Notes: generated by a model from the sequence alone, not told the origin. Counted from the first letter of the stretch, positions 20,866 through 47,674 are shown. The stretch is DNA of 64,000 bases from an uncultured Gammaproteobacteria bacterium (GCA_965602855.1 CBFCZV010000011.1:453-64452); one strand, 5' to 3'. Program-made: numbers and translations.

Positions 20866-20868
20866 ATC

Positions 20869-20954: not shown

Positions 20955-20967
20955 AACATAAAAAAAT

Positions 20968-21413: not shown

Positions 21414-21419
21414 AAAAAT

Positions 21420-22705: not shown

Positions 22706-22984
22706 TAGTTATTGAGTTTCCAGATATCTTGATTGTATTCCTGCATGGCCATGTCGGTTGAAAAATGACTGCTGCAGCACGGTAGGCACGATTAGCGAGT
22801 AACCCAGATGAAGCATAGCGGAATCCGGGATTACTCTCCATAACTATTAATACTATCCATGCTGCCATCTCCGTCCCACTACAATTCAATTACTCTTGAT
22901 TTAACGTAACAATGAAACGAGGAGTATGGGCACTATCTGCTGGCGTGATATTATGTGAATCTTGCTAACAATCTATAAAACAAC

Positions 22985-23497
22985 ATGACATCTAGAAAGC
23001 TTACTTTTGATGACCATAAAGCCAGCTATTTTAAATTTCCGATTTCTATTCTCACCGACAACATCACCTTAAGCAAAAACATCGGTGCACTATTTCGGCT
23101 TTGTGACGCACTGGGTGTTGAACATTTATATTTAACTGGCGATTCGGCAATCACTTCTGATGCTAAATTTACTAAGGTTTCTCGCTCTACAGAACGTAGT
23201 GTTGCTTTCAGTGCTGAGCAGGATGCTTTTTCCGTCATAGAAACACTAAAGGAGAATGGCTATACGATTATTAGCCTGGAATTAACTACACAAAGTATAA
23301 ATATCCGGGATTTTGATTTTTCTATAGCTGAAAAAATCTGTTTGATTCTTGGAAATGAAGCCAGGGGCGTTGACGACCAATTACTGGCGATGTCTGATCA
23401 CTGTGTTCATATTCCCATGCTAGGCATGAACTCTTCAATGAATGTGATTTGTGCTGCCTCTATCGCATTATTTGAAATCACTCAAAGCATGTCTTAA
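22985..23497 (+). CDS. SpoU/TrmH-family RNA 2'-O-methyltransferase
   Basis: 170 aa. SPOUT motifs LILGNEARGV and IPMLGMNSSMNVICAASIALFE. Confidence 0.75.
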   Translation: MTSRKLTFDDHKASYFKFPISILTDNITLSKNIGALFRLCDALGVEHLYLTGDSAITSDAKFTKVSRSTERSVAFSAEQDAFSVIETLKENGYTIISLELTTQSINIRDFDFSIAEKICLILGNEARGVDDQLLAMSDHCVHIPMLGMNSSMNVICAASIALFEITQSMS

Positions 23498-23593
23498 ATG
23501 ACGTTTTCAATAACAGAACAACAATTATAAATGCCTTATATGCGCGCCTTGCTCTTTTATTCGGCCTCTCCGAGCAATAAAATTACTTTATCG

Positions 23594-23782
23594 CTAAACG
23601 CCGCTCCACCATACTTTTCCATCATCCATCATATTAGTGATATCAGACTGCCTTCGAGGCGCGTTGTTTCGGCTGTCTCCCTCCATATTGTAATGACGAG
23701 TCCTGATTCGCCGCTCAGCACCCGCCCTGCGGTCAAGATTGCCTGCTCTTCGTTCGTTTCTTGTATTTGTTGAGTGCGACAT
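23594..23782 (-). CDS. small arginine-rich hypothetical protein
   Basis: 62 aa. Strong SD (GAGGTGG) 5 nt upstream of the ATG. The overlapping plus-strand ORF (23531-23773) has no SD and an implausible composition. Confidence 0.4.
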   Translation of the reverse strand: MSHSTNTRNERRAGNLDRRAGAERRIRTRHYNMEGDSRNNAPRRQSDITNMMDDGKVWWSGV

Positions 23783-23929
23783 AGCACCACCTCATTACTT
23801 AATTGATTCACACTAATAGTGGGCGCTCAGTCATCATTTAAGTCAAGCGTGTGCTTATTGAATTTTTTTATCCCTTAAGGTCTAATTTTCATACTAAAAT
23901 CACTTTATTCAAAATTAGGAATTAATAAT

Positions 23930-24442
23930 ATGGGTCGATATCGACCACCGCAGAAACCGGGTTCAAAATACATCACACCCGAGGGAAATCAGCGTTTGAC
24001 TGAAGAGCTGGATTTTCTCTGGTTCAAGCGTCGCCCTGATGTGACTCGAGCATTATCAGCTGCTGCGGCTGAAGGCGACCGCTCGGAAAATGCAGAATAT
24101 ATTTATCGTAAAAAAGAGCTACGTGAAATTGATGCGCGGGTTCGTCATTTACGAAAAAGACTGGATGGCATTAAAGTTGTTGATCGCATCCCCGATGATC
24201 AGGATAAGATTTTTTTTGGTGCCTGGGTTCATCTTGTCGATGACAATGATATTGAAAATATTTATCGCATCGTCGGCCCCGATGAGCTTGATCCAAAACT
24301 TAACTACATCAGTATGGATTCACCCATGGGCAAAGTTCTGCTGGGCAAGTCACTGGATGATGAATTCAAGATAAAGCTACCCGAAGGTGAAGCTTTTTAC
24401 ACTATTCTAAATGTCAGTTATTCAGCTATTGAAGAACCTTAG
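23930..24442 (+). CDS. greB: transcription elongation factor GreB
   Basis: 170 aa. ITPEGNQRLTEELDFLW...GDRSENAEYIYRKKELREID...FFGAWV...ISMDSPMGKVLLGK parallels E. coli GreB. Confidence 0.88.
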   Translation: MGRYRPPQKPGSKYITPEGNQRLTEELDFLWFKRRPDVTRALSAAAAEGDRSENAEYIYRKKELREIDARVRHLRKRLDGIKVVDRIPDDQDKIFFGAWVHLVDDNDIENIYRIVGPDELDPKLNYISMDSPMGKVLLGKSLDDEFKIKLPEGEAFYTILNVSYSAIEEP

Positions 24443-32097: not shown

Positions 32098-34494
32098 CTA
32101 TCCATCAACATCCCTCACCATCTCATCATGATAGTACTTGTACTTCGGCCGCGCCTCGATGCCATGGCATTTAACACAGAACGTATCTTTGGCGCCCCGG
32201 CGGCGTAAAAAACTATTAAGTACATTGCCTTCCTGATTCTCAAACTCTGTCCGTTCAATTACTTCTTCTTTCTTGTTCGAACCATGTTCAGGCTGCCAAC
32301 GATGAGGATTATGACAGGTCACACATGCAATACTGCCAAACTCTTCTATTTCATTTTTCGCATTCACCAGCGGCATGACTTTAGCATCAGATCGCAGTAC
32401 AAGATCTTCAAAAGGATGGCTAAAGAGTTCAACTGTCCTCTTTTCAGCTACGCCTTTATCCTGGTGACAGTTCATGCAGATACGGTCTCGCTCAAGCGGT
32501 TTTTCCTTACCTTTTTCCTTATATTTTCTGCGCTCACCTGCATATAAAAAATCAGTTTGTTCATCACCTTTATGCAGGCTGTGGCAGGATCCGCAAACAC
32601 CAGCCTGTTCAGGCTTCTGATCAAAATGATTTTCATGATTTTTGGCGGTGACACGTAGATCATGATCGGTATTAGCTACCTGCTCATATTCTTCATGACA
32701 GAAACTGCATAGTTTGCCATCACGGTTATCAAACTTAAGCAGGGCAGTGCCTTCTTTACCATTGTGTAGATCATGACAGGTCAGGCAGGTAATTTTTTTA
32801 ATTTCTTCTTCACCAACCTTGACGGATTTTTCCAGCTCAATATTGACTGGATGTATACCTTTTTTGCGTGCATCTTTTTCATCTTTGGCGTGCTGGCGTT
32901 CGTGGCAGGCTGTGCACAGTTGTGCATCATCAATTTCTAGTGGTGTCAGTGCTTCATTGGCTGCACCGTGAATCTGGTGGCAGCTCTGGCAAATCATCTG
33001 TTTATCACCACCCAGACTTAGGCCTTGTTCTAACAGTTTCTTTGGCATGCCTTTATGCAAATGTTCATCTACGGCGTAACCTTCTGTCTCACCTGCGGGC
33101 GGCTGTTTGAGATAAACCCCCACTGGATGATTAATACCTTTTAAGGGGAATTTTTTGTTTAGCGTACTGGCCAGTTTTGATTCATGACACTGCTGGCACA
33201 GGTCACCATCCTTGTTCAATACTCGCAGCCATGGATTGGCGTGCTCGCTGTATAAAGTATCGGCTTCATCGATGTCTGCCGAATGTGGGGTATGGCAACT
33301 GCCGCAACTGAGCTGTTTTTCTTTATTGTGGTTATCGCTCAATAAAGGAAATGCTTCGGGTATTTCATCCTCTCGTTTTTTGTCTTTCTGTGTTTTATCT
33401 TTTTCACGCTGATGATGAATGTCGGGGTGCTGCTCACCATGGCCAATAGAACGACGTGAATCTAGAACCGCACCGTGGTGACAGCTATAACACATGCGCT
33501 CGCTGGCCACAGGTGGCACATCTTCATGGGAAATCTTTCCTGCTTTATATTCATCCGACCATTCCAGATGGCAGCTAATGCAGTTTTTTTGTGATGTCTC
33601 TAATGTTGCTTGCTGCGGTATTGTTGCCTGTATTTCTGAAAGCTGGAATACCTCAACCCGGTTTTCCAGTGCATCGACAACATAAAGCTTGTCCTGCTCG
33701 ATGCTTAGTGCAACTGGTGCTGAAAACTTGATGGGATTCTTTTTTTCATCCATTAAAAACCCATCAAACTCACCATCATAAAAAACTGAAATCGTACCGC
33801 GATAAGCATCACTCACCAGCATGTGCCGTTCTCTTAAGGCCAGTCCATTGGGGCGATACAGTTCGCCATCTGCCAGACCGAAGCGACCTGCCTGACCAAA
33901 TCGTCGACCTTGCTGATTAAATCCCTGTACCCTCGCATTGATGACATCGACTACCTGCAGATAGCCATCACGGTCATGCTTTATCTGAAATGGAAATAAA
34001 AATTCAGAAGCCAGCTCACCACGCTTGCCCCAGCACAGCAGTTCTTTGCCCGTACTGGCATCGATACGACAGACACGGTGGTTGCGTCGATCACTCCAGC
34101 TAATAATACCCTCGCTAATTGTCAGTGCCACCGGCTCTGCTGGCTTCTCACCAGACAGGGGCAAATGCTTGATCAGTCGCCCAGCCAAATCAAACATGCT
34201 GATGCGGTGATTGCCCGTATCAGCCAGATAAACTTTATCCTCACTGATAGCTATACCCATGGGTAAGTTCAATCCCGCAGACTGGCCAAAACTGAAAGAC
34301 CATGTTGCATTTTCATCAAACACGACGACCCGATTATTAACACCATCTAAAACATAGGCATGGCCGTCTTTACTAATGGCCACGTCACTGGGCTGATCCA
34401 GGCCGCCTTCCAGCGTTGTAATATGATCTGCCTGCAGTGCTGCGTTTGCATTAACCGCAAACAAGGCGCATATCAGGAAAAAAACTGTTCTCAC
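32098..34494 (-). CDS. NHL-repeat beta-propeller fused to a dodecaheme c-type cytochrome (periplasmic or secreted)
   Basis: 798 aa with signal peptide (AVNANA). Six NHL-like repeats (e.g. YVLDGVNNRVVVFD, YLADTGNHRISMFD, YVVDALENRVEVFQ), then 12 CxxCH. GTG start overlaps the upstream stop by 4 nt. Confidence 0.85.
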   Translation of the reverse strand: MRTVFFLICALFAVNANAALQADHITTLEGGLDQPSDVAISKDGHAYVLDGVNNRVVVFDENATWSFSFGQSAGLNLPMGIAISEDKVYLADTGNHRISMFDLAGRLIKHLPLSGEKPAEPVALTISEGIISWSDRRNHRVCRIDASTGKELLCWGKRGELASEFLFPFQIKHDRDGYLQVVDVINARVQGFNQQGRRFGQAGRFGLADGELYRPNGLALRERHMLVSDAYRGTISVFYDGEFDGFLMDEKKNPIKFSAPVALSIEQDKLYVVDALENRVEVFQLSEIQATIPQQATLETSQKNCISCHLEWSDEYKAGKISHEDVPPVASERMCYSCHHGAVLDSRRSIGHGEQHPDIHHQREKDKTQKDKKREDEIPEAFPLLSDNHNKEKQLSCGSCHTPHSADIDEADTLYSEHANPWLRVLNKDGDLCQQCHESKLASTLNKKFPLKGINHPVGVYLKQPPAGETEGYAVDEHLHKGMPKKLLEQGLSLGGDKQMICQSCHQIHGAANEALTPLEIDDAQLCTACHERQHAKDEKDARKKGIHPVNIELEKSVKVGEEEIKKITCLTCHDLHNGKEGTALLKFDNRDGKLCSFCHEEYEQVANTDHDLRVTAKNHENHFDQKPEQAGVCGSCHSLHKGDEQTDFLYAGERRKYKEKGKEKPLERDRICMNCHQDKGVAEKRTVELFSHPFEDLVLRSDAKVMPLVNAKNEIEEFGSIACVTCHNPHRWQPEHGSNKKEEVIERTEFENQEGNVLNSFLRRRGAKDTFCVKCHGIEARPKYKYYHDEMVRDVDG

Positions 34495-35294
34495 TTGAGC
34501 AAATCCTTGATGCGAATTTGTTGATCATCTTTTTTGAAGCGTGTGAAGAAACGTGCAATCGTGTTTCTCTGAATTTTTTTCGCCTGCTCGGGAGATGCGC
34601 CCAGTGCTGCCAGATCCAGCATGGGGTTATCATCACCATGGCAACGCTGACATTTCGGGCCTTTTTCTTCTAGCGGTGCGTGCAGGCGTGCTTTAAGTTT
34701 GGCCTTGTCATTTTCATTGGCATCCTGCCAGTCCTGTTTTATTCTTTTAGAAAAATCATCATCGCTAAATATTAAAGCCAGCTCTTCAATATAAAACGGA
34801 GTGATTTTTGCACCTATCTGTGGCACCAGCATCAACTGTTGTTCTGGCTTATCTTTTTTGTTTTCATCCTGCTTCGGAACACGGGCAGCAATTTTGTTGC
34901 CTGCATTAGCACCATCAAAAGCCAGCCACGCATATTCCATGTCAATATCATCAGGCCGCATATGACAGGTTTCACAGGCAATATAACGACTGTGCCTGTT
35001 CATAAAGGTGCGACTACGTTCGTTCTTTCTGTGTGGCAGGCTCTGATGGCAGTTCGTGCAAATCGCCTGCTTTGTAGTTTTCTGTTGCTCAGCACGGTGA
35101 TGAAACACCGGTACGGAAATATTTTCCTGCAACTTGATTTCCTTATGATCTTTTATTTTCTTAAGGGCCTCATCAACTTGCTTTTCACTGGGTGCGGCCT
35201 GGGTTACCTGCTGCTGGTAGAACGGTACGGCCAGCAGTTGCTGGGGCAACAATAATGAACATATAAATAAAAATACTAACCAGTGCTTATTCAT
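34491..35294 (-). CDS. triheme c-type cytochrome
   Basis: Start set at MNKHWLVFLF (signal peptide); ATGAATAA overlaps the upstream stop by 8 nt. Motifs CTNCH, CETCH, CQRCH. Confidence 0.8.
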   Translation of the reverse strand: MNKHWLVFLFICSLLLPQQLLAVPFYQQQVTQAAPSEKQVDEALKKIKDHKEIKLQENISVPVFHHRAEQQKTTKQAICTNCHQSLPHRKNERSRTFMNRHSRYIACETCHMRPDDIDMEYAWLAFDGANAGNKIAARVPKQDENKKDKPEQQLMLVPQIGAKITPFYIEELALIFSDDDFSKRIKQDWQDANENDKAKLKARLHAPLEEKGPKCQRCHGDDNPMLDLAALGASPEQAKKIQRNTIARFFTRFKKDDQQIRIKDLLK

Positions 35295-37554
35295 TGCCTT
35301 TCTCCTGATTAGCTGATTTTTTTCCGGAGGCATTTTTACTGTTCCTTTTCTTTACTTTTCCTTTGGCTTTGCGTTCCAGCATTTTTTCCTGAAAAGCATC
35401 ACCACCCAGTATGGAGAAGGTCACACCCTTTTTACGCTTGCCCAATACACTGCGCCACAAAGCACCAACAGCAAAAACCAGTATCACTGGAAGAAAAATA
35501 AACAATGCTTTTATCCAGTTTGAATCTGTTCTTTCAACGACGGGTAACGTGCTGTCATCACTAACGGCAATCATATCCAGATCGTGTAGATCTGTTTCGA
35601 CAAAGCCTTTATTTAGCGGGTGTTTAGCAAAGCCATGACATTCACTCTGTGCACAAGTTTCTGCCAGCTTTTCCGGATGCGTTGCAGCCTGTTTCTTTTC
35701 ATCGCGCAAAATGCCATGCCGATAACCTGTTGGTGCGTGGCAATCAATACATGATGCACCCTGCATAACATTCGCTTCTAGCAGACGTCCGTGCAGGGTC
35801 ATTGCATAACTATCGCTGGCGACGACAAATCGTGGCCCGGCTTTTTCTTTTTCCTGGGTTTCTTCATCTTCTATTTCAACTTCAGCCATGCGCTCGTGAT
35901 CTGCATGGCACTGGTTGCAGCTTCTGTTATGATCATTTTTATCCCAACGTGAACCTATAAAACGACGCAACAAATGCCCGCTAAATTGCCCTAACCAAAC
36001 TTCTCCTTGATGACATTTTCCACATTCAGTTTCGACATGATCAAAATCGGCTTTAAATTTCGGCAGCATTTTCTCACTGATATAGGCTTCGTTGCTGTGA
36101 CATTGACGGCAGGATGGGTTTTGTTTCTCGCTGCTTTCTTCCAGTCGGTTGCCGCCGGTGAATCCCTTGCTCCAGCCGTCGCCATGCGTGGAATCGGCAA
36201 ACTCTTCGACCACTTTTTTATGAGTATAGGGTTTGCCTTTGGATGGCTCTTCTACATGACAGGTCTCAGCGCAATCGACTTCACCATTCTCAACCTTGTG
36301 TGGAAAATCCTGTATTTTTCGATGACAGTCCTTGCACGGCACGCTGCCATGGAGTGAACTGTTGTAATGTTTTTTTTTGATTGATGCGCTACGTAGCACG
36401 CCTAGCTTATCAATATAATCCAGTCCCTCTAAAGCATGACAGGAAAAACAGCCATCGGGGTCGGGGTGACGCTCGGCGGCAAAAACATCCTGACTAAAAC
36501 CAACAAAGAGCAATGTCATAACAAAGATCAAGGCCACACTCATATGCCGTGGAGAACGCCAATGCTTAAATCCCTTTCCTTTATTTAGTCGCAGGTACGA
36601 CCAGCGACTGTCTTTTTTCTCCTTTTTTGATGGCTCGAAATGAACGGCCGTCCAGTTTGGCTGGGGATGGAAATCCACGCCTTTTTTCTTACGCTTAGGA
36701 TCTTCATCCAGTGGCGCACTACGCCAGTCGATTGCACCCCAGTCACAGACATCAACGCATTCATGACAGGACATGCAGGATAGTTGATCGACCACGGCAA
36801 TGCCGTCTTTCATCTGAATGGCACCGGTCATGCATTGGCGGGCACAGATATTACAGCCGGTACAGCGGCTACGTTCAACGCGTACCCGTCGGGTAAATCT
36901 GAACATTGCACCGAGTCGATTAACCAGTCCATCGACGGCACCGATGGGGCAAAGGAACGTACAGTAAGCACGGCCTTTGCTGGAAAAGAATCCCAGCAAA
37001 AACAGCAGAGCGATATTGACCAGACCAATGCCAGACAAAATATAAGCAAACCCCTTGAGGCCACCACTGATTGCTTCAAACAAACGCGGCACGGTAATAA
37101 AATTACATAGCGTGCAGGCGCTGATACCCAGCAGCGGCATCAATACCAGATAAACAGAAAAGTAACCGTAACGAATTGGCACCTGAGGCAGGGCGCGGTA
37201 TTCAATCTTCCAGCGGTCGTCTATTGTGCGGCTGACCATTTCGGGAAAACCGCCGACCGGACAAACGTAGGAACACCACATACGGCCGTAAAAAAACGTG
37301 GTCATCATAATGGTGGTGAACACATATACCCCGATGGAGGCTACCTGAATATTATTAGCAACATCCTGTGGGTCCATACCGGGGAAGATTAGATAAAAGC
37401 GGCGCATACAAAGCTTGCCGCACAGATCCGGATTATCAACCAGGCTCGGTAAAAACAGAAAGGGCGCAAAAAATAATGTGCATGACAATATAATTATTGC
37501 GTAGCGAAACTTCTGCGGGTTGGGTATCGCCTTGATGTTATCGATAATTCTCAT
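35287..37554 (-). CDS. NapH/CcoG-type membrane polyferredoxin fused to a membrane-anchored multiheme cytochrome c domain
   Basis: 755 aa. N-terminal 4 TM helices with CSYVCPVGG and CTFLCPIGA, then two 4Fe-4S motifs (CTGCNICARQC, CMSCHECVDVC). A TM follows, then 6 CxxCH plus CAETCH and CAQSECH, a final TM, and a Lys-rich tail. Confidence 0.85.
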   Translation of the reverse strand: MRIIDNIKAIPNPQKFRYAIIILSCTLFFAPFLFLPSLVDNPDLCGKLCMRRFYLIFPGMDPQDVANNIQVASIGVYVFTTIMMTTFFYGRMWCSYVCPVGGFPEMVSRTIDDRWKIEYRALPQVPIRYGYFSVYLVLMPLLGISACTLCNFITVPRLFEAISGGLKGFAYILSGIGLVNIALLFLLGFFSSKGRAYCTFLCPIGAVDGLVNRLGAMFRFTRRVRVERSRCTGCNICARQCMTGAIQMKDGIAVVDQLSCMSCHECVDVCDWGAIDWRSAPLDEDPKRKKKGVDFHPQPNWTAVHFEPSKKEKKDSRWSYLRLNKGKGFKHWRSPRHMSVALIFVMTLLFVGFSQDVFAAERHPDPDGCFSCHALEGLDYIDKLGVLRSASIKKKHYNSSLHGSVPCKDCHRKIQDFPHKVENGEVDCAETCHVEEPSKGKPYTHKKVVEEFADSTHGDGWSKGFTGGNRLEESSEKQNPSCRQCHSNEAYISEKMLPKFKADFDHVETECGKCHQGEVWLGQFSGHLLRRFIGSRWDKNDHNRSCNQCHADHERMAEVEIEDEETQEKEKAGPRFVVASDSYAMTLHGRLLEANVMQGASCIDCHAPTGYRHGILRDEKKQAATHPEKLAETCAQSECHGFAKHPLNKGFVETDLHDLDMIAVSDDSTLPVVERTDSNWIKALFIFLPVILVFAVGALWRSVLGKRKKGVTFSILGGDAFQEKMLERKAKGKVKKRNSKNASGKKSANQEKGNE

Positions 37555-37557
37555 TCT

Positions 37558-38460
37558 TTATCTCTCAAATTCATGGCAGGCTAAACACAGCGTGCCGTCT
37601 TTGGCTGACAGGCGTAGCAATACCTCATCCTGCAGGCGTTGATATTTCAGTTCGTGCGTACCGCCGTCCTGCTTTGCCAGTTTTTTTAATCGTTTTTCTT
37701 TATCAGCCCTGAATACTTTGTTCCAGACATGATCTTTGTAGCTCACACCTTTTTCAACTTCTACATCTGCAATCTGTCTGCCAGCGGGTTTATCTTTTGC
37801 AATCACGCCTATTTCATGGGGCGAGTGACAGGTGGCACACATGACTTTGTTTTTACTGTCCAGTGGCAAAATGATCTTATGTTCCTGTTCCGATTTTTCT
37901 ATACGCTCTCGCATTTCCTTATCCGGCTCTGCCCGATGATTCAGCGCATTAAAGTGCGGCGCATCTAAATGACAGCCCCAGCATAATTTTTCAGGTGGCA
38001 GGCGAAATTCCAGCTCATCTCGTTTAATTTCTTTTTCTGGGTCGGGTGCTTCCTTATGGCAATACTCACAGTCTTTCTCATCGTACTCACCGTTATCATC
38101 GAGCAGGTCATGAATATTAGGACGCTGATAATCTTCCTTCTCATGACAGAGATAACAGAAATCACTTAGCTTTTTGTAAGGGCCGCCACGGTGAAAGTCA
38201 TCGGCTTTTTTATCTACCTTGTCAATTTCTGTTTTTTCAATATCCTTGATGCCATGACAGGTTTTACAGACGATCTTGCCTTCATCACTCAACGGTAAAT
38301 CATCAGACACTTTCATTGCTTCTGGCGGTTTGATGTCAACCAGATGGTGCATAGCTGGCAGCTCAATTTTTTTATCTCCCGCCGTCGTGTCTTCTGCTAT
38401 TACCTGTAAGGGCAACAGACCAATAAGAAATAGAGATAAATATGAACGAGTGAACATCAC
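37558..38460 (-). CDS. hexaheme c-type cytochrome (periplasmic)
   Basis: 300 aa with signal peptide (LPLQVIA). Six CxxCH (CKTCH, CYLCH, CEYCH, CWGCH, CATCH, CLACH). Confidence 0.85.
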   Translation of the reverse strand: MMFTRSYLSLFLIGLLPLQVIAEDTTAGDKKIELPAMHHLVDIKPPEAMKVSDDLPLSDEGKIVCKTCHGIKDIEKTEIDKVDKKADDFHRGGPYKKLSDFCYLCHEKEDYQRPNIHDLLDDNGEYDEKDCEYCHKEAPDPEKEIKRDELEFRLPPEKLCWGCHLDAPHFNALNHRAEPDKEMRERIEKSEQEHKIILPLDSKNKVMCATCHSPHEIGVIAKDKPAGRQIADVEVEKGVSYKDHVWNKVFRADKEKRLKKLAKQDGGTHELKYQRLQDEVLLRLSAKDGTLCLACHEFER

Positions 38461-39449
38461 ATGCCTGCCTGTGCAGCTTCACCGTGTGTATGGCAATCTC
38501 GGCAGTCACCACCAACATCGTGCACACCGCTCAGGCCATTACCAGTATCCTGTGCACCTTCATCTACTATGGTCTCCATCTGATGACACAACACGCACAG
38601 CTGAGAATAATCACCATCAACTACTGTTACCGAATAGGGCTCATCACGTAATACACTATCAAGCTGTGAAGCCCCTTTGTTTGAGCTATCAATAATTAAT
38701 TTTTCATTATTAGTGGCGTGCATGCTGTGACAGTCCGTACAATCGACAACACTCTGATAGCTATACGCCTCGCGCAGGCCACTATAAGTTGCTACACCAC
38801 TGCCATCGACTAACCCGTGTTTATCAATAAAATTAAAATCATCTTCTGATGCAACTAGAGGGTCGTCGTAGCTGTTGCCAGTAATTTCAAAGCCGGTTTG
38901 CTGGTGATCACGATTGTGGCAACGCAGGCAGAATTCAGCTTCTGAACTGTAGTCCACAATGTTCTGCAGGGCGTTGGGGTACTTTGTCAGGTCAGTATTG
39001 ATTTCAAACTGTCCGTCCATATCTGATGCATCGTGGCAATAGACACATTGTTCATCACTAACGTCTGCCACCAAAGTCGCACTAAAACCATGGCCATGCT
39101 GGCCTTGCCAAATTTGATTATCAGGCATATCACTGTTGTTGTGACAAATGACACACTGGCGTGAGCCACTTTCATTCGTGCCGTTGTTACCATGGCAGCC
39201 AGTACAACTGGCAAAGCCTTTTTCAACAACAATGCCACGAATTAGATCTGCAATGTCATGAATTCCTGCTATCGAATGACATGCACCACAATCTGGCAAT
39301 CCCCAGGCTGCGCCACCTTCGCCATGACTGGCATCCAGAATTAAATTAGCTTCTGTAATATGTTTTGTTTCACCCTCACTATCACCGCCACAGGCTGTAA
39401 GCAGTAGTGACAGCATCAATCCTAAAATTAAAATCATTTTATTCATCAT
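38457..39449 (-). CDS. octaheme c-type cytochrome lipoprotein
   Basis: 330 aa. Lipobox LLLTAC followed by GGD; eight CxxCH. Overlaps the upstream stop by 4 nt (ATGA). Confidence 0.85.
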   Translation of the reverse strand: MMNKMILILGLMLSLLLTACGGDSEGETKHITEANLILDASHGEGGAAWGLPDCGACHSIAGIHDIADLIRGIVVEKGFASCTGCHGNNGTNESGSRQCVICHNNSDMPDNQIWQGQHGHGFSATLVADVSDEQCVYCHDASDMDGQFEINTDLTKYPNALQNIVDYSSEAEFCLRCHNRDHQQTGFEITGNSYDDPLVASEDDFNFIDKHGLVDGSGVATYSGLREAYSYQSVVDCTDCHSMHATNNEKLIIDSSNKGASQLDSVLRDEPYSVTVVDGDYSQLCVLCHQMETIVDEGAQDTGNGLSGVHDVGGDCRDCHTHGEAAQAGM

Positions 39450-40078
39450 CGACTCTTCCTGTGACAGTCACTACAGTAACCAATGTTGTGGCAACGACTG
39501 CATGAAGCAGCATTCATACGCGCCTCGATACCATGGCTGGCACGATAACCCAGACCATGAACTCGCCGATGTGTTTTATCGCGACGGAAATGACAATCGC
39601 TACAAAAAGACTGATCGATATGACAGCTACTACATTGCTCATCATCTGGTTTGGCCGAATCCAGACGTGCATCCTCACCGTGATGATTTGCGTAATCCAG
39701 ATTGTGATCTTTCGGCCATATTTTTTTCGGATCGTCATGACACAGTTCACAACGCGAGGGGGCACTCTGCCTGCTTACATGGCATTCATGACAAATCGCT
39801 TCTAGCGGCTCATTGGAAATTACATTGAGCTTTTTAAGCTGTTTTAGATCAGTGACGCTGTTTTTATTAAAGGGATGACACAGTAAACAACTATCTCCTT
39901 CCTTTTCCATCGCATCAAAATGTGCTTTATGCGGATAAAAAATATCGGCGCGCTGATCACGCATTTGCCACCAGCTTTTTTCTTTCTCTGGTTTGTTCGT
40001 CACTTCTTTTTCCAATGTTGCCTGTTCAGCCATCACTGGCAACGCAAACAGGGTCAGAAACAACAATAAAATTCTCAT
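39446..40078 (-). CDS. heptaheme c-type cytochrome (periplasmic, c3/c7-like heme density)
   Basis: 210 aa with signal peptide (ALPVMA). Seven CxxCH in about 150 mature residues. Start overlaps the barrel gene stop by 1 nt (TAATG). Confidence 0.85.
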   Translation of the reverse strand: MRILLLFLTLFALPVMAEQATLEKEVTNKPEKEKSWWQMRDQRADIFYPHKAHFDAMEKEGDSCLLCHPFNKNSVTDLKQLKKLNVISNEPLEAICHECHVSRQSAPSRCELCHDDPKKIWPKDHNLDYANHHGEDARLDSAKPDDEQCSSCHIDQSFCSDCHFRRDKTHRRVHGLGYRASHGIEARMNAASCSRCHNIGYCSDCHRKSR

Positions 40079-41349
40079 TACATTGCTCCCTGCCTGTCAT
40101 CGCCAAAGCTATAACTAAGACTAAGAAGAAAGCGATATTCATCTTCGAGACGACTATTCCAGATATGGCTAGCGGTAACATCAAACTCTAGGCCAGATAG
40201 CATGTCTTTAACGCCTAGCATATGCTCCATACGTAGCTCTATGCCAATACTGCGATTATCGCCCTCCAGTTGTTTTTCCTGTTGCTGCAATACGCTACTG
40301 ACGCCACCCCTCACAGAAGAGCTGAGAGTTTTCTCTACATCAATGAACAAACTACTTACACGCTCAGTCTGCAATTCTAGTTGTTCAGCTTTAGCCGCAA
40401 GTAACAAGCCTTGATTGCTACGCCGCTCAATTTCAAACATGGACGCATAACCGTTACCACCGACTTCACGATTCACCTGCCGCGTTGCCACTGACCATGT
40501 TTGTTGATAATCATATTTAAATTGATAGGCTGCTTTGAATTGCGTTTGTTGACCAGTAGCATAAAGTGAATAAAATCGGTCTCTAAAACTCAGCGCATCA
40601 TCAGCAGGCTCGTAGGTTTCATAGTCGAGTCGAAGCGTGCTATCTTCTTTCAAATCCCAGCGTGTATTCATCAGCACTGATTCCCACTGCGATCTTTCTA
40701 CTACGTAACTTGCAGACATCGATAATGCTGCAGGCAGCAGATTTTCATTATCACTACTAGCAGCCAATCCGAAATGATAGCGTTGTTCATGACCATCCTG
40801 ATCTAAACGCTGCCAGCCGAAGCGAGTATCAACTTGATAATTATGAATAAGACGTGGCATAGTTAGCAGATCAACCCCATAGATCGCCTCACCATCAATT
40901 GAATTAAATGCTTCAACGCGACCGGGGACGCCTGTATAAAAGTTTAGAATTAGAGCGTCAGCTTTATGACGATATTGAAGACCATCAAGACTGTAATAAC
41001 CGAGGGTATCGGCTCGAAAAAAACGACCCACACTAATTCGATCTAGTGATTTATTAAAATCCTGTTGCAGATAAAATTGATACAGCTCAGCTTCACTATC
41101 ATCTGTCTGTTGTGACAATGCTAAGCTCAAGCCACTTATCAAGCCTTTATTATGATCGTTATAAACTAGATCAAGCCGTTCTTGCAAACTACTCTCAGAA
41201 TAAAACTGGCTGTTATTCATTTCAATAGCAGTTTCCAGCTCCCCCGACAATCCTGCCTGTGCATCTGATGTTGCTAATGCCATTATGCCTAACAGGCTTA
41301 GTACATAATTAAAACCGCGCACTGCTATCGTCGTAAAAACCATTGCCAT
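40078..41349 (-). CDS. putative outer-membrane beta-barrel (porin-like partner of the adjacent cytochromes)
   Basis: 423 aa with signal peptide (ALATSDAQA). No Cys and no heme motif. Tyr/Gly/Ser/Asp-rich with alternating hydrophobic pattern; LLSLSYSF lies near the C-terminus. Confidence 0.6.
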   Translation of the reverse strand: MAMVFTTIAVRGFNYVLSLLGIMALATSDAQAGLSGELETAIEMNNSQFYSESSLQERLDLVYNDHNKGLISGLSLALSQQTDDSEAELYQFYLQQDFNKSLDRISVGRFFRADTLGYYSLDGLQYRHKADALILNFYTGVPGRVEAFNSIDGEAIYGVDLLTMPRLIHNYQVDTRFGWQRLDQDGHEQRYHFGLAASSDNENLLPAALSMSASYVVERSQWESVLMNTRWDLKEDSTLRLDYETYEPADDALSFRDRFYSLYATGQQTQFKAAYQFKYDYQQTWSVATRQVNREVGGNGYASMFEIERRSNQGLLLAAKAEQLELQTERVSSLFIDVEKTLSSSVRGGVSSVLQQQEKQLEGDNRSIGIELRMEHMLGVKDMLSGLEFDVTASHIWNSRLEDEYRFLLSLSYSFGDDRQGAM

Positions 41350-41539
41350 GTTTCTTTTTATGCACGGCCCAGGTAACGATAGCTGCTAGCGCAACCACAC
41401 AGCCACCACAGGTAGAACAACGACCTTCTTTTGGAACAGTGCAGTTGGAAGAAGTGATAATATGACTAACGGCAAAACCAGCACCCGCTAACCAGGGCAC
41501 CAATTTTTCACTTCGCTTTAGCAAGCTTTTTTGTTTCAT
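41309..41539 (-). CDS. small Cys-rich two-TM membrane protein
   Basis: 76 aa. Two hydrophobic segments flank NCTVPKEGRCSTCGGC. Its 3' end overlaps the barrel gene start by 41 nt, so either gene's limits may differ. Confidence 0.4.
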   Translation of the reverse strand: MKQKSLLKRSEKLVPWLAGAGFAVSHIITSSNCTVPKEGRCSTCGGCVVALAAIVTWAVHKKKHGNGFYDDSSARF

Positions 41540-41625: not shown

Positions 41626-44508
41626 TTAAACTCTGATACGACGTCTGCCACAACCCACCAGGGTCATAACAAACATCCCAATTAACAGCACATAGTCAGC
41701 CGATCCACCACCTGATGACGTAGAAGTAACAGCACTAGAATCACTATCTGCAGATGCAATGCTACTATCAACAATTGCATAATCACTGAAGTGATCAGTC
41801 CAGAATACAATCATACCTTCACTCTCTTCACCCTCGACTTCAGAGTGAGGCTGTATTAGGGCAATGTCATCTACACTAATTTCTGACCAGCTAACACCGC
41901 TATCAGTAGAGAAGATAACTTTGACCTCATCAAGACGGGTATTGCTACCCTTATAAGGCATTTTCACCAGCATTCGATTGTTCGAAAAGTTAGTTACTTC
42001 GTTACTGTTACTGTCTGTTACTTGCAATGAGTAGACGTCTGAAGTTAGTCCACCTAGATCTGCATCATCAACACTGGCAAGCACATCAAGGTTAGACAAA
42101 CTGACCTGCACTCTGTAATCAGGGAACGTTAGTTCAGTTTGTCCATTATCTTCCACCATCACTAACACTCCACGAATAACACTGCTACCATAACGTGCCT
42201 GATACGCAAACACGTCATCACCAGGGAACAAAGTAGCAGCTAATGCCGTATTTGCTACTCCTGCCTTCACAATTGCATCATGGGCAGACGCTCGTTTAAA
42301 TACGCCTGAATCTGCATCAGTTATTTCAGCATTCAAAATTGACATAGATGGATTGAGTCTTGATGCATAAAGAATATCTGAAACATTCTCAGTAACCACA
42401 CCGAACTCATCGGCCTTCATGTATGGATAATCAAAAATCACCAAACCTTCATCGACAAGACGAGGGTCTACTAACTCAGTAATTTCTTTAGTATTACCTT
42501 CACCAAACAGGCCTGTGGGTGACAACAATGTACTAAATGACCCATCCTGTTTAACATTATGGCACTGCTCACACTGTACCGAAGCAACTGCTGGGCGAGT
42601 ATTATGTGACATCAAATACTGGTTTGATTCTGTCCAAACCATAATTGCATCTGGATTTTCTACACCTTTAGCAATCAATACTTTGTCAAAAGCATTTTTA
42701 ACCGCAACAAATGTTTCATAATCCTCGGGTTCACCAAAACGCCAGCTGCCGTGAGAGAAACTGACCGTCACTGTGCCCAACTCTTCACCAGATACCGGGT
42801 CAACAATAACACCATAATTTTCTCCCGCATCATCTGTAAGCATTTCAAAAACACTATCACGCTCGGTCTTATTTATAGTGCGACCAGTATTTTTATCTTT
42901 CCAGTAGTAACGCAGCCTTGGGTTGTAAGGAACAATTGTAAGATCACCATTTTCAGCTGCACGATACCTGTACATCGGTAGTATCGGAACACCGCGACTT
43001 TCCTTATCTGTAATATGACAGGCCTGACAACTAACAACGTCCAGATGCGTCTGCGTAATACGTTCCAGCGTCTCCTGTGGATATCCAGTCATATCGCCAC
43101 TTGCTTTCCATTTCGCAAGATGAGCCTCCTGCATACTGTCATGACCTGAAGGAATAGCAGGATTCGGTGCATCATCATGGCAATATTCACAGGATTTTGC
43201 ATTCGGTGAATAATCCAGATCATTACGTACATCCATATCTGAATTACCTTTAAGGAAATTATGATCAGCATCCAGATCAACATTGGCATACGCTGGATTA
43301 AAATAATTCCGTGTATGACAGGCATTACAGTTTTCTATTGCACGCTCTTCGCCATTAGGCTCAATCCACGTCTTACCTTTATGCACATCATCCTGATAGT
43401 CCTCAACTACAACACCGTCCTCATCAATAACTGCTTCTGCACTTTCACCAAAACCATAAAAACCACGGCGTGAGTTGCTGGTAAGGTGGCACATCATGCA
43501 GTTATCATTAGCTGGGAATCGAATCATCGGAATAGCTACTTTCTTGTCCTCATCAAAAGCAGCGGTATTCCAGTTGAGTAGTGGTTGCTCATTCTCATCC
43601 TCAAGCAACATATAAGCCGGCTCAGACGCATGCATATCAATTTCTACGCCTTCTGGTATTTCTGTGGTGCGATCAAAAGTAACCACTGAGGTATCCACCT
43701 GCACACCATCTTCATGCTTAAGATTCAAAAACTCTAAAATGGAAGTATTCACACTGCGGAATTGCCCTTCATCAGCCAAATAGGTACGGCGCAATGCTTT
43801 AAAATGATCAAACGCAGAGTCTCCGCCTTCAACCTCTAACTGTGGATCAAAAACTTGTAAAGCGTCAAATTGCACATGACATATCAAGCAGTCATTCTCT
43901 ACGACACCACTTTTTTTCCAGTCCCATGCAGAAATTCCACTTGGATCCTCTGTACCCGCATTGGTATTACGACTGTAGTAATCACCATCGAACTTGGGAA
44001 CAGAAGCAATATCAACTTCATCATAGCGGTTTCCATTTCTGTCTTTCTCCATCCAGCCACCACCAGCATGACAACTTACACATCGCATAATATGATCGGC
44101 TGACCCCAGATCACCAAAATCATCAGCACTCGCATTACTCTTCTTAGCAAGCTGATCTGGATTGCTGCTTCCCATGCAGTTATAACCACCATAATAACCA
44201 GGGCCAACTAGAGTAGTCAGCCCGCGCAATTCACCAAAGTCATCGCGAGTCTCATCGCGACCTTGTTCAATATGAAAAGCATGAGTAATGGCCTCATAGT
44301 CATGACAGCCACCAGTACCACAGGTAACTTTTGAACTATAAGGATTAGCACTATCGAGAACATGGTTACCATCTTCATCTAGTAACGGAATGGCCGGGTG
44401 TAGAATCGGTTTATCCATATCATTAATTGCCGCTTCTACCTGCCCAACTGACACAAATAAAAACAAAAACCCTGACAAAACCACCATTTTCTTATTTAAA
44501 AAATTCAT
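41626..44508 (-). CDS. large (960 aa) multiheme c-type cytochrome with a C-terminal GlyGly-CTERM-type sorting signal
   Basis: Start set at MNFLNKKMVVLSGFLFLFVSVGQVEA (SD GAGAG, 9 nt spacing). Seven CxxCH plus CGTGGCH (CX4CH). The last ~300 aa are heme-free. C-terminus is SSGGGSADYVLLIGMFVMTLVGCGRRRIRV. Confidence 0.85.
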   Translation of the reverse strand: MNFLNKKMVVLSGFLFLFVSVGQVEAAINDMDKPILHPAIPLLDEDGNHVLDSANPYSSKVTCGTGGCHDYEAITHAFHIEQGRDETRDDFGELRGLTTLVGPGYYGGYNCMGSSNPDQLAKKSNASADDFGDLGSADHIMRCVSCHAGGGWMEKDRNGNRYDEVDIASVPKFDGDYYSRNTNAGTEDPSGISAWDWKKSGVVENDCLICHVQFDALQVFDPQLEVEGGDSAFDHFKALRRTYLADEGQFRSVNTSILEFLNLKHEDGVQVDTSVVTFDRTTEIPEGVEIDMHASEPAYMLLEDENEQPLLNWNTAAFDEDKKVAIPMIRFPANDNCMMCHLTSNSRRGFYGFGESAEAVIDEDGVVVEDYQDDVHKGKTWIEPNGEERAIENCNACHTRNYFNPAYANVDLDADHNFLKGNSDMDVRNDLDYSPNAKSCEYCHDDAPNPAIPSGHDSMQEAHLAKWKASGDMTGYPQETLERITQTHLDVVSCQACHITDKESRGVPILPMYRYRAAENGDLTIVPYNPRLRYYWKDKNTGRTINKTERDSVFEMLTDDAGENYGVIVDPVSGEELGTVTVSFSHGSWRFGEPEDYETFVAVKNAFDKVLIAKGVENPDAIMVWTESNQYLMSHNTRPAVASVQCEQCHNVKQDGSFSTLLSPTGLFGEGNTKEITELVDPRLVDEGLVIFDYPYMKADEFGVVTENVSDILYASRLNPSMSILNAEITDADSGVFKRASAHDAIVKAGVANTALAATLFPGDDVFAYQARYGSSVIRGVLVMVEDNGQTELTFPDYRVQVSLSNLDVLASVDDADLGGLTSDVYSLQVTDSNSNEVTNFSNNRMLVKMPYKGSNTRLDEVKVIFSTDSGVSWSEISVDDIALIQPHSEVEGEESEGMIVFWTDHFSDYAIVDSSIASADSDSSAVTSTSSGGGSADYVLLIGMFVMTLVGCGRRRIRV

Positions 44509-44528
44509 TACAATCATCTCTCTTATTT

Positions 44529-44795
<267 letters not shown>

Positions 44796-44966: not shown

Positions 44967-45944
44967 TCAAAGATTAACAAAATTAACCTCCAACCTAAAC
45001 AACACCTCCCAAGCCCCCAAGCGCTCATCCGTAACCAGTGGCTTATTCCAGTTAACTGCTGGCGCTATCTCATAGAACAACCATTTTCTATGAAAATTCT
45101 GTCGAAAACGTATACCCACACGTGTGTTATTTGTATACCTATCCGGCTTTGTCACACCACTTACACTACTCTCATAAGAAAGCGCGCTTTTATCTGTTAG
45201 ATGCTGGTACAGTACCAAACCGCTTGTCAATTCTTTACCTTCAAAACTTTCTGATTTAGAGGCATAATTAGTTTGTCTTAGTAAAAAATCATCACTCAGT
45301 TTTTTTTCAAAATCTATTCTAGATGTGGTTCCATCCGCATTATCTCGCCTGAACAATTCCTGTGTAAATCGAGTGATAAATGTTTCAGTAATTGGCCACT
45401 TATAACGATAGCGAAAGGCAATGCTCGGAGAAAGTTTTACCCTGACACCAAAATTTGCTCTTTCTGATTTTGTTACCTCGTACAACAAACCAAGGTTGCC
45501 ACCTGACTCCGTATCAGAACCGGGGACAATATCCCGTAAAGTTTCATCTTCATCATCTTCAAATATAAGATTGATACTCTTCTTTGTTTTGGGTAGTTTA
45601 AAACTGGCATGCAAATTACTGGCATATGACCATCTACCTCCCTCAGTTAATATAAAATCGTTTTGCCAGCGAACACGCGTACCTGCTCGCACCTCTTCGT
45701 CTACTCGAGCACTAGAAAAAAACGAATCAAACCATACTGAAGGCTCACAGAACTGTATGCTCAAATAAGTATGCGCCTCATCAAACCAGCTATCACTTTC
45801 TCCCTTCAATTGCTCACAGACAGACGACTCATCCTCCTGTTTAATTTCTTCAGACACTTCTGCATAGGCATGCTTTACCTGTACCGAACTCAGCAATACA
45901 AGCAGAAATATATAACTTATTTTTTTATAAGCTAATGGGAGCAT
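44967..45944 (-). CDS. hypothetical outer-membrane protein (possible small beta-barrel)
   Basis: 325 aa with signal peptide (VKHAYA). Alternating-pattern segments; C-terminal FRLEVNFVNL. Confidence 0.5.
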   Translation of the reverse strand: MLPLAYKKISYIFLLVLLSSVQVKHAYAEVSEEIKQEDESSVCEQLKGESDSWFDEAHTYLSIQFCEPSVWFDSFFSSARVDEEVRAGTRVRWQNDFILTEGGRWSYASNLHASFKLPKTKKSINLIFEDDEDETLRDIVPGSDTESGGNLGLLYEVTKSERANFGVRVKLSPSIAFRYRYKWPITETFITRFTQELFRRDNADGTTSRIDFEKKLSDDFLLRQTNYASKSESFEGKELTSGLVLYQHLTDKSALSYESSVSGVTKPDRYTNNTRVGIRFRQNFHRKWLFYEIAPAVNWNKPLVTDERLGAWEVLFRLEVNFVNL

Positions 45945-46025: not shown

Positions 46026-47609
46026 CTAATGTATTTTTATTACTCCTGGTTTTTCTTTCTTAAAGTCAGGCATAGCCATGCCCACAGAAGCATTTATGTA
46101 GGTAGGGTCAGCAACTACATAGCGCTGACCATTGTGCATTACCGAATCACCCACTACGCGGCCTTTAAATCGAACCGCCGTTGCCACATGTCCAGGATAA
46201 TCCAGCCCAACCACATCCATACCTAACAGGCTGTGTACCAACCATGCAAAAAGGATGGAGCGATCTTCGCAATCTGAATAAGGGTAGTAGATCGTTTCTT
46301 CAGGAAACAAATAGTTTTCTTTACCAAACTGCCCTTCATCTGTTTTGTAACGTAGTGATGTCTGTACAAATCTCAGCAAAAAGTTAACGGCTTTTTGTTC
46401 ATCCATTCCTTTCATGTGATCACTGAGTTGTCTTTGTAATGAGTTCGAGGCCGCCGCACTCACCTTGCCTTTAAAATACCACTCAAGATCAAGCTGTGGA
46501 TAGGTTTCCATGAAGCGAATACGCTCATTATTGTAAGCTGCATGAATCTCATAATGCTTGCCTTCAAAATCAAAGGACAAATTTCTACGTGCTGCTTTAC
46601 TATCAAGCAGCGCTTCATTATTCATTTGCATATTCAAAGCTTTATTTGCATCAGGATAGTTACCATCATAGGTATACACCTGACCTAATTTTTGACCCTT
46701 GCCATCAAAACGAACGGCATAATAACGGACTTTTTCGAAGGTAAAGTACGGCACTGCATACATTGGCTGCTGAGATGGCACTAGTAAAAACACTTTTCTA
46801 TCATTATAGGCGATACGTGATTGAAAGCCCGACTTGGCAAGTACAAACCAGGTAAATAATGACTGACTACTCTCTGAAGAATAAATCTTCCCTGCAATTT
46901 CATGCACCAATAATGCATGAGCCCAGTCATTGAGCTGCAAGGCTTTTGATTTTTTATTCACCTGATCAATCAGGTCATCATAATCAGCCAGACTAAGCGC
47001 AGACCAGAAATCACTAATGCCTTTTCCATTAACTCGTGATTTCATTGACGTCTTCAATTTTGGATCATAATAAAAAGTATGGCGACTACCCAGATAAGTG
47101 AGCACCAGCTTTCTACCCTTATGTACGATCTTGGGTTCTGGCGCTATGACAGGTCTTATAACAGGTTCAGGGACAACAGGCTTTAAAATCACTGGCTCCG
47201 GTTTACTTTCAGGAACAGGTGGTATTTCTACAACTGGTTTTGGTGTATCAGGAATTTTAACAATCGGCTCAGGCTTTGGTGCTGGCTTTACCTGAGGCTT
47301 CGGTTCATCTTTCACAACAGGTGTTGGCACGGGCCGTGGTGGTTTAACTGGCTGCGGTTTCGCTACTGGCATAACCACTGGCTTGGGCGCTTTATCACGT
47401 ACCACACCCTTTAATAAATCCATTTCTTTCCACTGCAATTTCAAAAACGTTGTGAACTCCTTATCTCTCTTATCTTTATATTCCTGAAATGATGCCTGAT
47501 ACTGCTTCTTCCATGCTGCATAATCATCGTTAGCATATGAAGACTGACTCACTGCCACTACAAATACAAAGCTAGTAAAAACACCAAAACTTTTACTCAA
47601 TCTGTACAT
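46026..47609 (-). CDS. secreted protein with Pro-rich linker and C-terminal transglutaminase-like (Cys-His-Asp) domain
   Basis: Start set at MYRLSKSFGV (signal peptide). PKP/PVP-rich tract of about 100 aa. YPYSDCEDRS...YPGHVATAV...VVADPT gives a candidate catalytic triad. Confidence 0.6.
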   Translation of the reverse strand: MYRLSKSFGVFTSFVFVVAVSQSSYANDDYAAWKKQYQASFQEYKDKRDKEFTTFLKLQWKEMDLLKGVVRDKAPKPVVMPVAKPQPVKPPRPVPTPVVKDEPKPQVKPAPKPEPIVKIPDTPKPVVEIPPVPESKPEPVILKPVVPEPVIRPVIAPEPKIVHKGRKLVLTYLGSRHTFYYDPKLKTSMKSRVNGKGISDFWSALSLADYDDLIDQVNKKSKALQLNDWAHALLVHEIAGKIYSSESSQSLFTWFVLAKSGFQSRIAYNDRKVFLLVPSQQPMYAVPYFTFEKVRYYAVRFDGKGQKLGQVYTYDGNYPDANKALNMQMNNEALLDSKAARRNLSFDFEGKHYEIHAAYNNERIRFMETYPQLDLEWYFKGKVSAAASNSLQRQLSDHMKGMDEQKAVNFLLRFVQTSLRYKTDEGQFGKENYLFPEETIYYPYSDCEDRSILFAWLVHSLLGMDVVGLDYPGHVATAVRFKGRVVGDSVMHNGQRYVVADPTYINASVGMAMPDFKKEKPGVIKIH

Positions 47610-47637
47610 TTTCTTAACCTTTCTGCCCTTTATAAAC

Positions 47638-47674
47638 AAAAAAACCGGCACCCAAATCTAATCAGGTACCGGTC
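47638..47674 (-). terminator. rho-independent terminator after the LPP20-like gene
   Basis: Minus strand reads ACCGGTACC-12 nt-GGTGCCGGT followed by TTTTTTT. It lies upstream of the revised start at 47609. Confidence 0.6.

Follow-up and report, generated by a model that had tools for sequence, protein, structure and literature searches.

How an exported multiheme cytochrome without an N-terminal lipoprotein signal might be held at the surface of a Gram-negative cell is the question raised by a locus in 64,000 nucleotides of DNA from an uncultured Gammaproteobacteria bacterium (GCA_965602855.1, CBFCZV010000011.1:453-64452; 'the window' hereafter, meaning the whole stretch analysed, 64 kb of one metagenome contig). 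Surface retention of Gram-negative electron-transfer cytochromes is understood mainly from the N-terminal lipoproteins MtrC and OmcA. The window encodes a 960-amino-acid (aa) cytochrome whose C-terminus resembles the GlyGly-CTERM signal processed by rhombosortases. The reading favoured here, with moderate confidence, is that this protein is a Sec-exported octaheme cytochrome of the MCA0424/MCA0426 family, encoded at the head of an operon, which would cleave itself between the F and S of an HFS triplet, be lipidated by a rhombosortase and be held at the cell surface.

The full open reading frame (ORF; 41626..44553, minus strand) gives 975 aa from its first ATG, at 44553, an alternative upstream start. 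The 960-aa length of the original prediction, from a start at 44508, is borne out by a database protein of 960 aa with 100% identity, by the N-termini of close homologues and by a ribosome-binding site (AAGAGAG) upstream; the database holds a record of the 960-aa form and none of the 975-aa form. A Sec-type signal peptide ending in VEA, with A following the cleavage site suggested by the AXA rule, is predicted at the N-terminus, where a lipobox cysteine is lacking. An AlphaFold2 model built on an alignment (mean predicted local distance difference test score, pLDDT, 85.5; predicted template-modelling score 0.82) is mostly β-strand from residue 502 to 914, disordered from 924 to 937 (pLDDT <50) and helical from 938 to 959. 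Coordinates of all features are collected in Table 1.

The cytochrome ends in SSGGGSADYVLLIGMFVMTLVGCGRRRIRV, a sequence with the complete GlyGly-CTERM layout: a position at the extreme C-terminus, a low-complexity spacer, a Gly/Ser motif, a hydrophobic helix (hydropathy >2 over 15-residue windows, helix predicted for 938–959) and a basic cluster. When all six-frame ORFs of ≥60 aa in the window were searched with a regular expression, this tripartite ending was found in the cytochrome and in one spurious 86-aa stop-to-stop frame only; as it is nearly unique in the window and recurs at the same position in most homologues, the tail stands above chance. The same kind of tail is carried by ~125 of 172 non-redundant family members and is retained among sulfur-oxidising Gammaproteobacteria. 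Thirty-six of 120 family tails reach the GlyGly-CTERM model TIGR03501 at E ≤ 0.03, a value that approximates the 15.5-bit cut-off by extrapolation from the scores of the window tail, and one tail scored singly gave 18.3 bits. At the same E-value 27 of the 120 match MYXO-CTERM, 15 match the related model GC_trans_RRR and three match JDVT-CTERM. GlyGly_CTERM is the sole sorting-signal model that matches the window tail. In the MYXO-, JDVT-, Synerg- and CGP-CTERM signals the signature motif always includes a Cys (bioRxiv 10.1101/2023.06.07.544157); the SSGGGS of the window protein contains no Cys, no DP is present, the JDVT and MYXO models give no match, and the only Cys of the tail lies at the far end of the helix.

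The tail is not constant across the family. Three orthologues (P0041, L012 and L066) carry a JDVT-CTERM signal (46 bits; cut-off 27) in place of the GlyGly-like tail, with no CPBP or MrtJ-type protease encoded within 10 kb of these loci. Members from methanotrophs are tail-less, and one Sedimenticola subgroup ends in CTLPENCGN. Judged from the sequences, sorting modules are exchanged within one cytochrome family. The deltaproteobacterial members, of ~1050 aa, have another, longer hydrophobic C-terminus.

The C-terminal part of the protein had been described as heme-free and β-rich. The strand content is confirmed by the model, but a domain probably related to the GAIN fold and its microbial counterpart MAIN, at residues ~798–915, had been overlooked, and its HFS triplet changes the predicted mode of attachment. 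ZU5, GAIN and UNC5b folds self-cleave at H-x-S/T in the turn before the last strand. The top fold matches of both the full model and a separate model of residues 655–930 (pLDDT 75.6) are ankyrin ZU5, the BAI3 GAIN domain and UNC5b (probability 0.96–1.0). Of 94 aligned homologues, 83 have H at position 906, 90 have F or L at 907 and 83 have S or T at 908; an alignment of 21 domain sequences shows no variation at H and S, and H-[FL]-[ST] ranks with the most strongly conserved parts of the domain. An HFS-type motif is present in 104 of the 115 GlyGly-tailed members that could be scored, in all three with a JDVT tail and in none of 25 scorable tail-less members (methanotroph and Sedimenticola), an association confounded by phylogeny.

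Searched against 1.84 billion representative proteins, the domain profile found ~50 large proteins from outside the cytochrome family (E-values 1e-7 to 1e-3). In ~30 of these that were inspected, Gram-positive surface proteins, the pattern GYVxFxTxHFSxYAV immediately precedes a sortase-type signal or SLH domains; eight matched proteins scanned against Pfam contain β-helix, LRR, Ig-like, fn3 or CBM modules. Alignment of the domain with these Gram-positive HFS domains by hhalign gave 99.2% probability (E = 1e-19, 101 columns), the second alignment having been built from matches to the first profile. For residues 798–915, homology with the HFS-bearing domains in these Gram-positive proteins is probable, as is a fit to MAIN domains. 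Brogan and Rudner (2026; bioRxiv 10.64898/2026.05.12.724683) demonstrated by Edman sequencing that the HFS of MAIN (microbial GAIN) domains is cleaved between F and S, with the fragments remaining associated, and described an architecture of signal peptide, cargo, MAIN domain and surface anchor, as in YfkN of Bacillus subtilis. Their preprint deals mainly with Bacillota, treats MAIN as chiefly a Gram-positive trait that may be the counterpart there of autotransporters, and does not mention cytochromes, GlyGly-CTERM or rhombosortase. The window cytochrome has the same order of parts: signal peptide (1–26), hemes (63–650), domain (~798–915), linker and a membrane- or lipid-anchor signal.

Rhombosortase itself was sought across the family. 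In Candidatus Venteria ishoeyi the gene directly upstream of that for the orthologue encodes a 191-aa rhombosortase (TIGR03902, 127.3 bits; cut-off 84). Haft and Varghese (2011; PMC3237569) found protease and client adjacent in 16 of 21 single-client genomes and far apart otherwise, so the arrangement in Venteria fits that of a single-client genome. In the Polarisedimenticolaceae metagenome-assembled genome (MAG) JAKITT01 a tailed orthologue and a rhombosortase are found on separate contigs; when named rhombosortases were compared with the cytochrome-bearing MAGs, this MAG alone matched, and five other rhombosortases came from other assemblies. Proteins named rhombosortase are also on record from lineages of the cytochrome family (Thiotrichaceae, Polarisedimenticolaceae and Colwellia). 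The draft genome of Beggiatoa sp. PS was reported to have a single GlyGly-CTERM protein (GI 153875496) and no rhombosortase (PMC3237569); since Beggiatoaceae carry the cytochrome with a GlyGly tail, this entry, its GI identity unconfirmed, may be a member of the family. Two gammaproteobacterial MAGs (JBPCXK01 and JBLYYN01) have their rhombosortase gene within a type II secretion system (T2SS) cluster, between the T2SSG pseudopilin and T2SSF genes, which fits a functional link between rhombosortase and T2SS. For VesB of Vibrio cholerae, cleavage by rhombosortase, attachment of a glycerophosphoethanolamine-containing lipid and T2SS-dependent surface retention have been reported (PMC6219818; PMC13393428), and VesC, which an autoproteolytic cut in its linker sets free, shows that release can follow anchoring (PMC13393428). 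No paper treating rhombosortase and multiheme cytochromes together was found in the searchable literature.

The heme motifs are placed as originally described: CGTGGCH at residue 63, CxxCH at 143, 207, 337, 394, 440, 494 and 646, and none past residue 650. Because none of the motif Cys and His (those of the CX4CH site, C63, C68 and H69, included) varies among the 94 aligned homologues, eight hemes are likely. Seven non-motif His are also invariant (H37, H376, H416, H463, H488, H635 and one more). The MtrC/MtrF sub-domain PF22113 alone passes its threshold; the OmcA/MtrC decaheme model TIGR03507 is matched in part and not reached (23.4 bits against 209.3).

Homologues number 426 at E ≤ 1e-5, mostly of 920–1050 aa and either unnamed or labelled 'cytochrome C'. 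A scan of 185,579 species-representative genomes of GTDB gave 103 loci, of which 80 were kept; hosts include Sedimenticola, Candidatus Thiodiazotropha, tubeworm endosymbionts, Beggiatoaceae (Venteria, Halobeggiatoa, Thioploca), Chromatiales MAGs, Methylococcaceae and Methylococcus capsulatus. Among these genomes MAG N3S-Bin_7 (JAPHSZ01; 88% identity) comes nearest. Nearly all related loci of sufficient length keep one gene order: the cytochrome, a Cys-rich 76-aa membrane protein, a putative β-barrel, three multiheme cytochromes, a fusion of NapH-like polyferredoxin and cytochrome, a further cytochrome, and an NHL-propeller/12-heme cytochrome. The 423-aa barrel candidate has no Pfam or NCBIfam family match. 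The 755-aa fusion contains Fer4_5 and 4Fe-4S dicluster domains, seven CxxCH and two longer motifs, with a TIGR02163 score (72.5 bits) below cut-off, and is a candidate quinol dehydrogenase feeding the conduit. As a whole the operon looks like a porin-cytochrome route linking the quinone pool and the cell exterior.

In M. capsulatus two orthologues lie in tandem (phmmer 840 and 767 bits, ~45% identity, seven CxxCH motifs), and homologues of the barrel, of the three cytochromes and of the NapH-like fusion follow as far as the examined locus extends; the two orthologues are taken to be MCA0424 and MCA0426 from the gene order and sizes in PMC4831470. Larsen and Karlsen found these two proteins in the surface-extracted fraction, with the MCA0427 β-barrel encoded alongside, and proposed outward electron transport by the MCA0424-region system, without biochemical evidence (PMC4831470). 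Two other assignments were rejected. The cytochrome c553O family (MCA0421/0423) corresponds to the two upstream cytochromes of ~1140–1160 aa in locus L072, the window orthologues being the next two genes; an electrode study of a ΔMCA0421 strain (PMC6281684) concerns this c553O-family protein and, as MCA0421 belongs to a different family, is not directly relevant here. The Uet cluster of Candidatus Tenderia differs in composition.

Several observations weigh against the favoured reading and are given here with the alternatives that they bear on. For the putative self-cleaving domain, searches against Pfam and PDB sequences gave no match to this C-terminal part, the template-modelling scores (TM-scores) to GAIN and ZU5 are just ~0.3, and the link to MAIN comes from one preprint and from comparison proteins chosen with the domain's own profile; furthermore, the Venteria orthologue, beside its rhombosortase, has HFG, and other Beggiatoaceae have KFA or KFT despite their tail. 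HFS could be a merely structural element of the last β-hairpin, leaving the cytochrome covalently joined to its anchor, as would suit a fold recognised by no curated model and tails that persist where the catalytic triplet is absent. This alternative, which concerns the cleavage claim only, is considered unlikely, though it is the one to be taken most seriously: the triplet is strongly conserved, occupies the same β-turn as in GAIN and MAIN domains, is confined to members with a membrane-anchor tail and is identical in the homologous Gram-positive domains, and the MAIN domains tested were cut between F and S (bioRxiv 10.64898/2026.05.12.724683). Because Beggiatoaceae have the tail without HFS, anchoring and self-cleavage are separable.

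For rhombosortase sorting, the GlyGly-CTERM signal of the original prediction is complete in architecture, but the window tail scores 11.3–11.6 bits (E = 0.38–0.48) with TIGR03501, under the 15.5-bit cut-off, a failure that had been named beforehand as grounds for rejecting the signal. It is weak counter-evidence, since the Venteria tail, beside a true rhombosortase, gives no TIGR03501 match at E ≤ 10. No rhombosortase or T2SS gene was found within the window, where no protein of ~190 aa with six helices is encoded and a hidden Markov model built from 120 rhombosortases matched nothing. Rhombosortase is adjacent in only one of the 80 GTDB cytochrome loci, and none of 80 metagenome loci centred on a rhombosortase has the cytochrome nearby. 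The same observations would suit a cytochrome kept on the outer face of the inner membrane by an ordinary transmembrane anchor, with a periplasmic role and neither processing nor secretion. Such an anchor is improbable: for mere anchoring the conserved Gly-rich motif, low-complexity linker and terminal Arg cluster would be superfluous, the rhombosortase gene lies directly upstream in Venteria, orthologues exchange the tail for a clear JDVT-CTERM signal, tail-less M. capsulatus orthologues were recovered in surface extracts (PMC4831470), and MAIN-type domains are reported ahead of cell-surface anchors (bioRxiv 10.64898/2026.05.12.724683). Sorting by rhombosortase is supported in part, by the tails widespread in the family and by Venteria and JAKITT01; the score of the window tail and the lack of rhombosortase and T2SS genes in the window speak against it.

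The role of a terminal cytochrome in extracellular electron transfer (EET), also part of the original prediction, is plausible given the conserved porin-cytochrome operon and the presence of MCA0424 and MCA0426 in surface extracts. A different function, compatible with any model of anchoring, would be that of a mainly catalytic octaheme enzyme (tetrathionate, nitrite or hydroxylamine reductase type), with a soluble sulfur or nitrogen compound as its substrate, rather than that of a terminal wire. The octaheme tetrathionate reductase model TIGR04315 is the best NCBIfam match (39.1 bits, E = 4.5e-10), the octaheme reductase Otr (1sp3) is the best PDB fold match of the model (E = 1.6e-3), and the hosts, sulfur oxidisers and methanotrophs, bear other octaheme enzymes. 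However, TIGR04315 is covered only in part and far from its threshold of 375 bits, the TM-scores to 1sp3 are low (0.15 query-normalised, 0.29 target-normalised), the seven invariant non-motif His fit mostly bis-His electron-transfer hemes, and the gene is always accompanied by the β-barrel, periplasmic multiheme cytochromes and NapH-like quinol dehydrogenase, so that a small probability is assigned to this function.

Processing of the tail by another intramembrane protease (a CPBP/Rce1-type, myxosortase-like enzyme, or GlpG) is very improbable, given the lack of the signature Cys in SSGGGS, the match of the window tail to GlyGly_CTERM alone and the absence of CPBP proteases flanking the JDVT-type loci, even though the closest relatives' tails slightly prefer MYXO-CTERM (18.5 and 17.1 bits; cut-off 20), which also weighs against rhombosortase, other family tails match MYXO-CTERM, GC_trans_RRR or, in the three orthologues named above, genuine JDVT-CTERM, and two V. 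cholerae rhomboid proteases are reported to cut VesB at different sites (PMC11389362).

With export, self-cleavage and rhombosortase lipidation retained as the favoured reading, the following course may be proposed. The protein would be exported by Sec and receive its hemes from the Ccm system, the genes for which lie, with a DsbA gene, just upstream of the cytochrome region in the window. Its C-terminal helix and Arg cluster, to judge by their composition, would hold it temporarily in the inner membrane, where the domain at ~798–915 may cut itself between F907 and S908, the two pieces staying joined through a shared β-sheet, as homology, motif and position suggest. By analogy with VesB and from comparative genomics, a rhombosortase would then cut within SSGGGS and add a glycerophosphoethanolamine-containing lipid, and the T2SS, again by analogy, would carry the complex to the cell surface. 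The outcome would be a cytochrome of ~880 residues on a lipidated stub of ~25 residues, exchanging electrons with a porin-cytochrome conduit that gene content would connect to the quinone pool via the NapH-like fusion; shedding would be possible.

More tentatively, and as a possibility that falls short of probable, the locus may represent a 'breakaway' tether in marine sulfur-oxidising Gammaproteobacteria, in which the outermost cytochrome of a conduit is bound non-covalently to a rhombosortase-lipidated stub, so that under mechanical strain the cell could shed it or come away from a mineral, an electrode or a partner cell, with anchors swapped (GlyGly-CTERM, JDVT-CTERM or none) and HFS travelling with the anchor. 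The modules are individually known; their union in one Gram-negative protein at the head of a conserved electron-export operon, where a GAIN/MAIN-type domain links a multiheme cytochrome cargo to a GlyGly-CTERM-like signal, is undescribed in the searchable literature. If this is correct, MAIN domains and rhombosortase would both acquire their first redox cargo and a MAIN-type domain would be at work in a Gram-negative envelope; the clients of rhombosortase and microbial GAIN domains would extend to respiratory proteins and Gram-negative envelopes, and a mechanism for the release or exchange of surface cytochromes would be supplied. The family is widespread in uncultured sulfur oxidisers (chemosynthetic symbionts, Beggiatoaceae, Sedimenticola) and in methanotrophs, and points to a modular alternative to lipoprotein anchoring, made of a C-terminal signal, probably for rhombosortase, and a probable self-cleaving GAIN-like domain. 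The nine-gene operon would then be a genetic marker for a poorly studied EET route in marine organisms of sulfur and methane cycling.

Table 1 Features of the octaheme cytochrome and its operon in the window (coordinates counted from the first nucleotide of the window).
Feature	Coordinates	Strand	Basis
Octaheme cytochrome gene, 960 aa	41626..44508	minus	Stop codon 41626-41628; homologue N-termini align to 44508 start
Predicted Sec signal peptide, residues 1-26, MNFLNKKMVVLSGFLFLFVSVGQVEA, followed by A	44431..44508	minus	Hydropathy and helix 2-21; AXA rule
Heme-binding region, residues 63-650: one CX4CH (CGTGGCH) and seven CxxCH	42559..44322	minus	Motif reading
MtrC/MtrF domain II/IV-like multiheme module, residues 335-503	43000..43506	minus	PF22113, 34.9 bits (gathering score 30)
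GAIN/MAIN-like β-sandwich, residues ~798-915 (wider heme-free region 651-915)	41764..42117	minus	Profile matches, fold matches
H906-F907-S908, putative autoproteolytic site (between F and S)	41785..41793	minus	Turn between last two strands, 898-904 and 909-914
Ser/Thr/Asp-rich unstructured linker, residues 915-930	41719..41766	minus	Sequence; pLDDT <50 for 924-937
GlyGly-CTERM-like tail, residues 931-960: SSGGGS, helix ADYVLLIGMFVMTLVGCG, RRRIRV	41629..41718	minus	Sequence, hydropathy, model
76-aa membrane protein, two hydrophobic segments, N-C-x8-C-x2-C-x2-C	41309..41539	minus	Same position in 64 related loci
423-aa putative outer-membrane β-barrel, MCA0427 homologue	40078..41349	minus	Synteny in 63 loci; phmmer E = 1e-27 to M. 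capsulatus ORF
Three multiheme cytochromes, 210/330/300 aa, 7/8/6 CxxCH	37558..40078	minus	Conserved operon
755-aa NapH/MauN-like membrane polyferredoxin and multiheme cytochrome fusion	35287..37554	minus	PF12801 and Fer4 families
280-aa cytochrome (3 CxxCH) and 798-aa NHL-repeat β-propeller/12-heme cytochrome	32098..35333	minus	Last genes of conserved operon
YfhL-type 2x[4Fe-4S] ferredoxin, directly upstream of cytochrome gene	44529..44783	minus	NF033683, 124 bits (cut-off 86)

Within the operon, the gene for the 76-aa protein also has homologues in methanotrophs, lacks Pfam annotation in related loci and is overlooked in ORF lists made at 80 or 100 aa; its product may bind a metal or Fe-S cluster or be an assembly factor of the conduit. 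The 755-aa fusion occurs as two separate genes in several genomes, including that of M. capsulatus. The YfhL ferredoxin, a cytoplasmic-type protein beside an operon for exported cytochromes, is found at the same position in seven related loci. Two exported proteins of 325 and 541 aa without a family match (44967-45944 and 46026-47651, minus strand) are encoded between the cytochrome operon and the LPP20, DsbA and ccm genes; they are not conserved beside the cytochrome in other loci, and alternating hydrophobic residues at the end of the 325-aa protein resemble those of an outer-membrane barrel. Elsewhere in the window, a three-gene cassette (a diheme cytochrome of ~190 aa, a monoheme cytochrome of 134 aa and a cytochrome b561-like membrane protein of ~190 aa) is tandemly duplicated at 3514-6870 (minus strand), adjoining a response regulator and sensor kinase pair (1189-3206) and a small exported protein (3203-3508). 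The stretch at ~18000-24000 has a G+C content of 0.39–0.40 (~0.45 elsewhere) and contains an IS3-like two-ORF transposase (18720-19055 and 19070-19894) and several small ORFs without obvious function; it is probably a mobile insertion.

Among known systems, the MCA0424-0434 operon of M. capsulatus is the same as that of the window in its orthologous cytochromes and downstream genes, including the MCA0427 barrel; unlike the window protein, MCA0424 and MCA0426 stop right after the last β-strand and lack linker, tail and HFS. As in the MtrC/OmcA, MtrCAB or Pcc conduits, an extracellular multiheme cytochrome with a PF22113 module is predicted beside a β-barrel and periplasmic multiheme cytochromes, and T2SS delivery is expected as for MtrC and OmcA. 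In contrast to these two, the window cytochrome has eight hemes, not ten, and no N-terminal lipoprotein signal, its predicted anchor being C-terminal; the barrel is of ~420 aa (MtrB, ~700 aa), and the inner-membrane partner is a NapH-like polyferredoxin, not CymA. JDVT-CTERM/MrtJ signals are found at the equivalent position in some orthologues, whereas the window tail lacks their invariant Cys and DP. The tail shares with the VesB/RssP GlyGly-CTERM system a C-terminal signal after an unstructured linker and a rhombosortase that co-occurs with orthologues, adjacent in one genome; it differs in its score, below the model cut-off, in a cargo that is a multiheme cytochrome and not a hydrolase, and in the putative self-cleaving domain between cargo and signal. 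That domain resembles those of MAIN proteins such as YfkN in having HFS in the last β-turn of a β-sandwich placed between cargo and surface anchor; its profile links it to the HFS domains of Gram-positive surface proteins, and GAIN and ZU5 domains are its top fold matches. Here the host is a Gram-negative gammaproteobacterium, the cargo a redox protein, the anchor a GlyGly-CTERM-like signal rather than a sortase signal or SLH domain, and the cleavage a predicted one.

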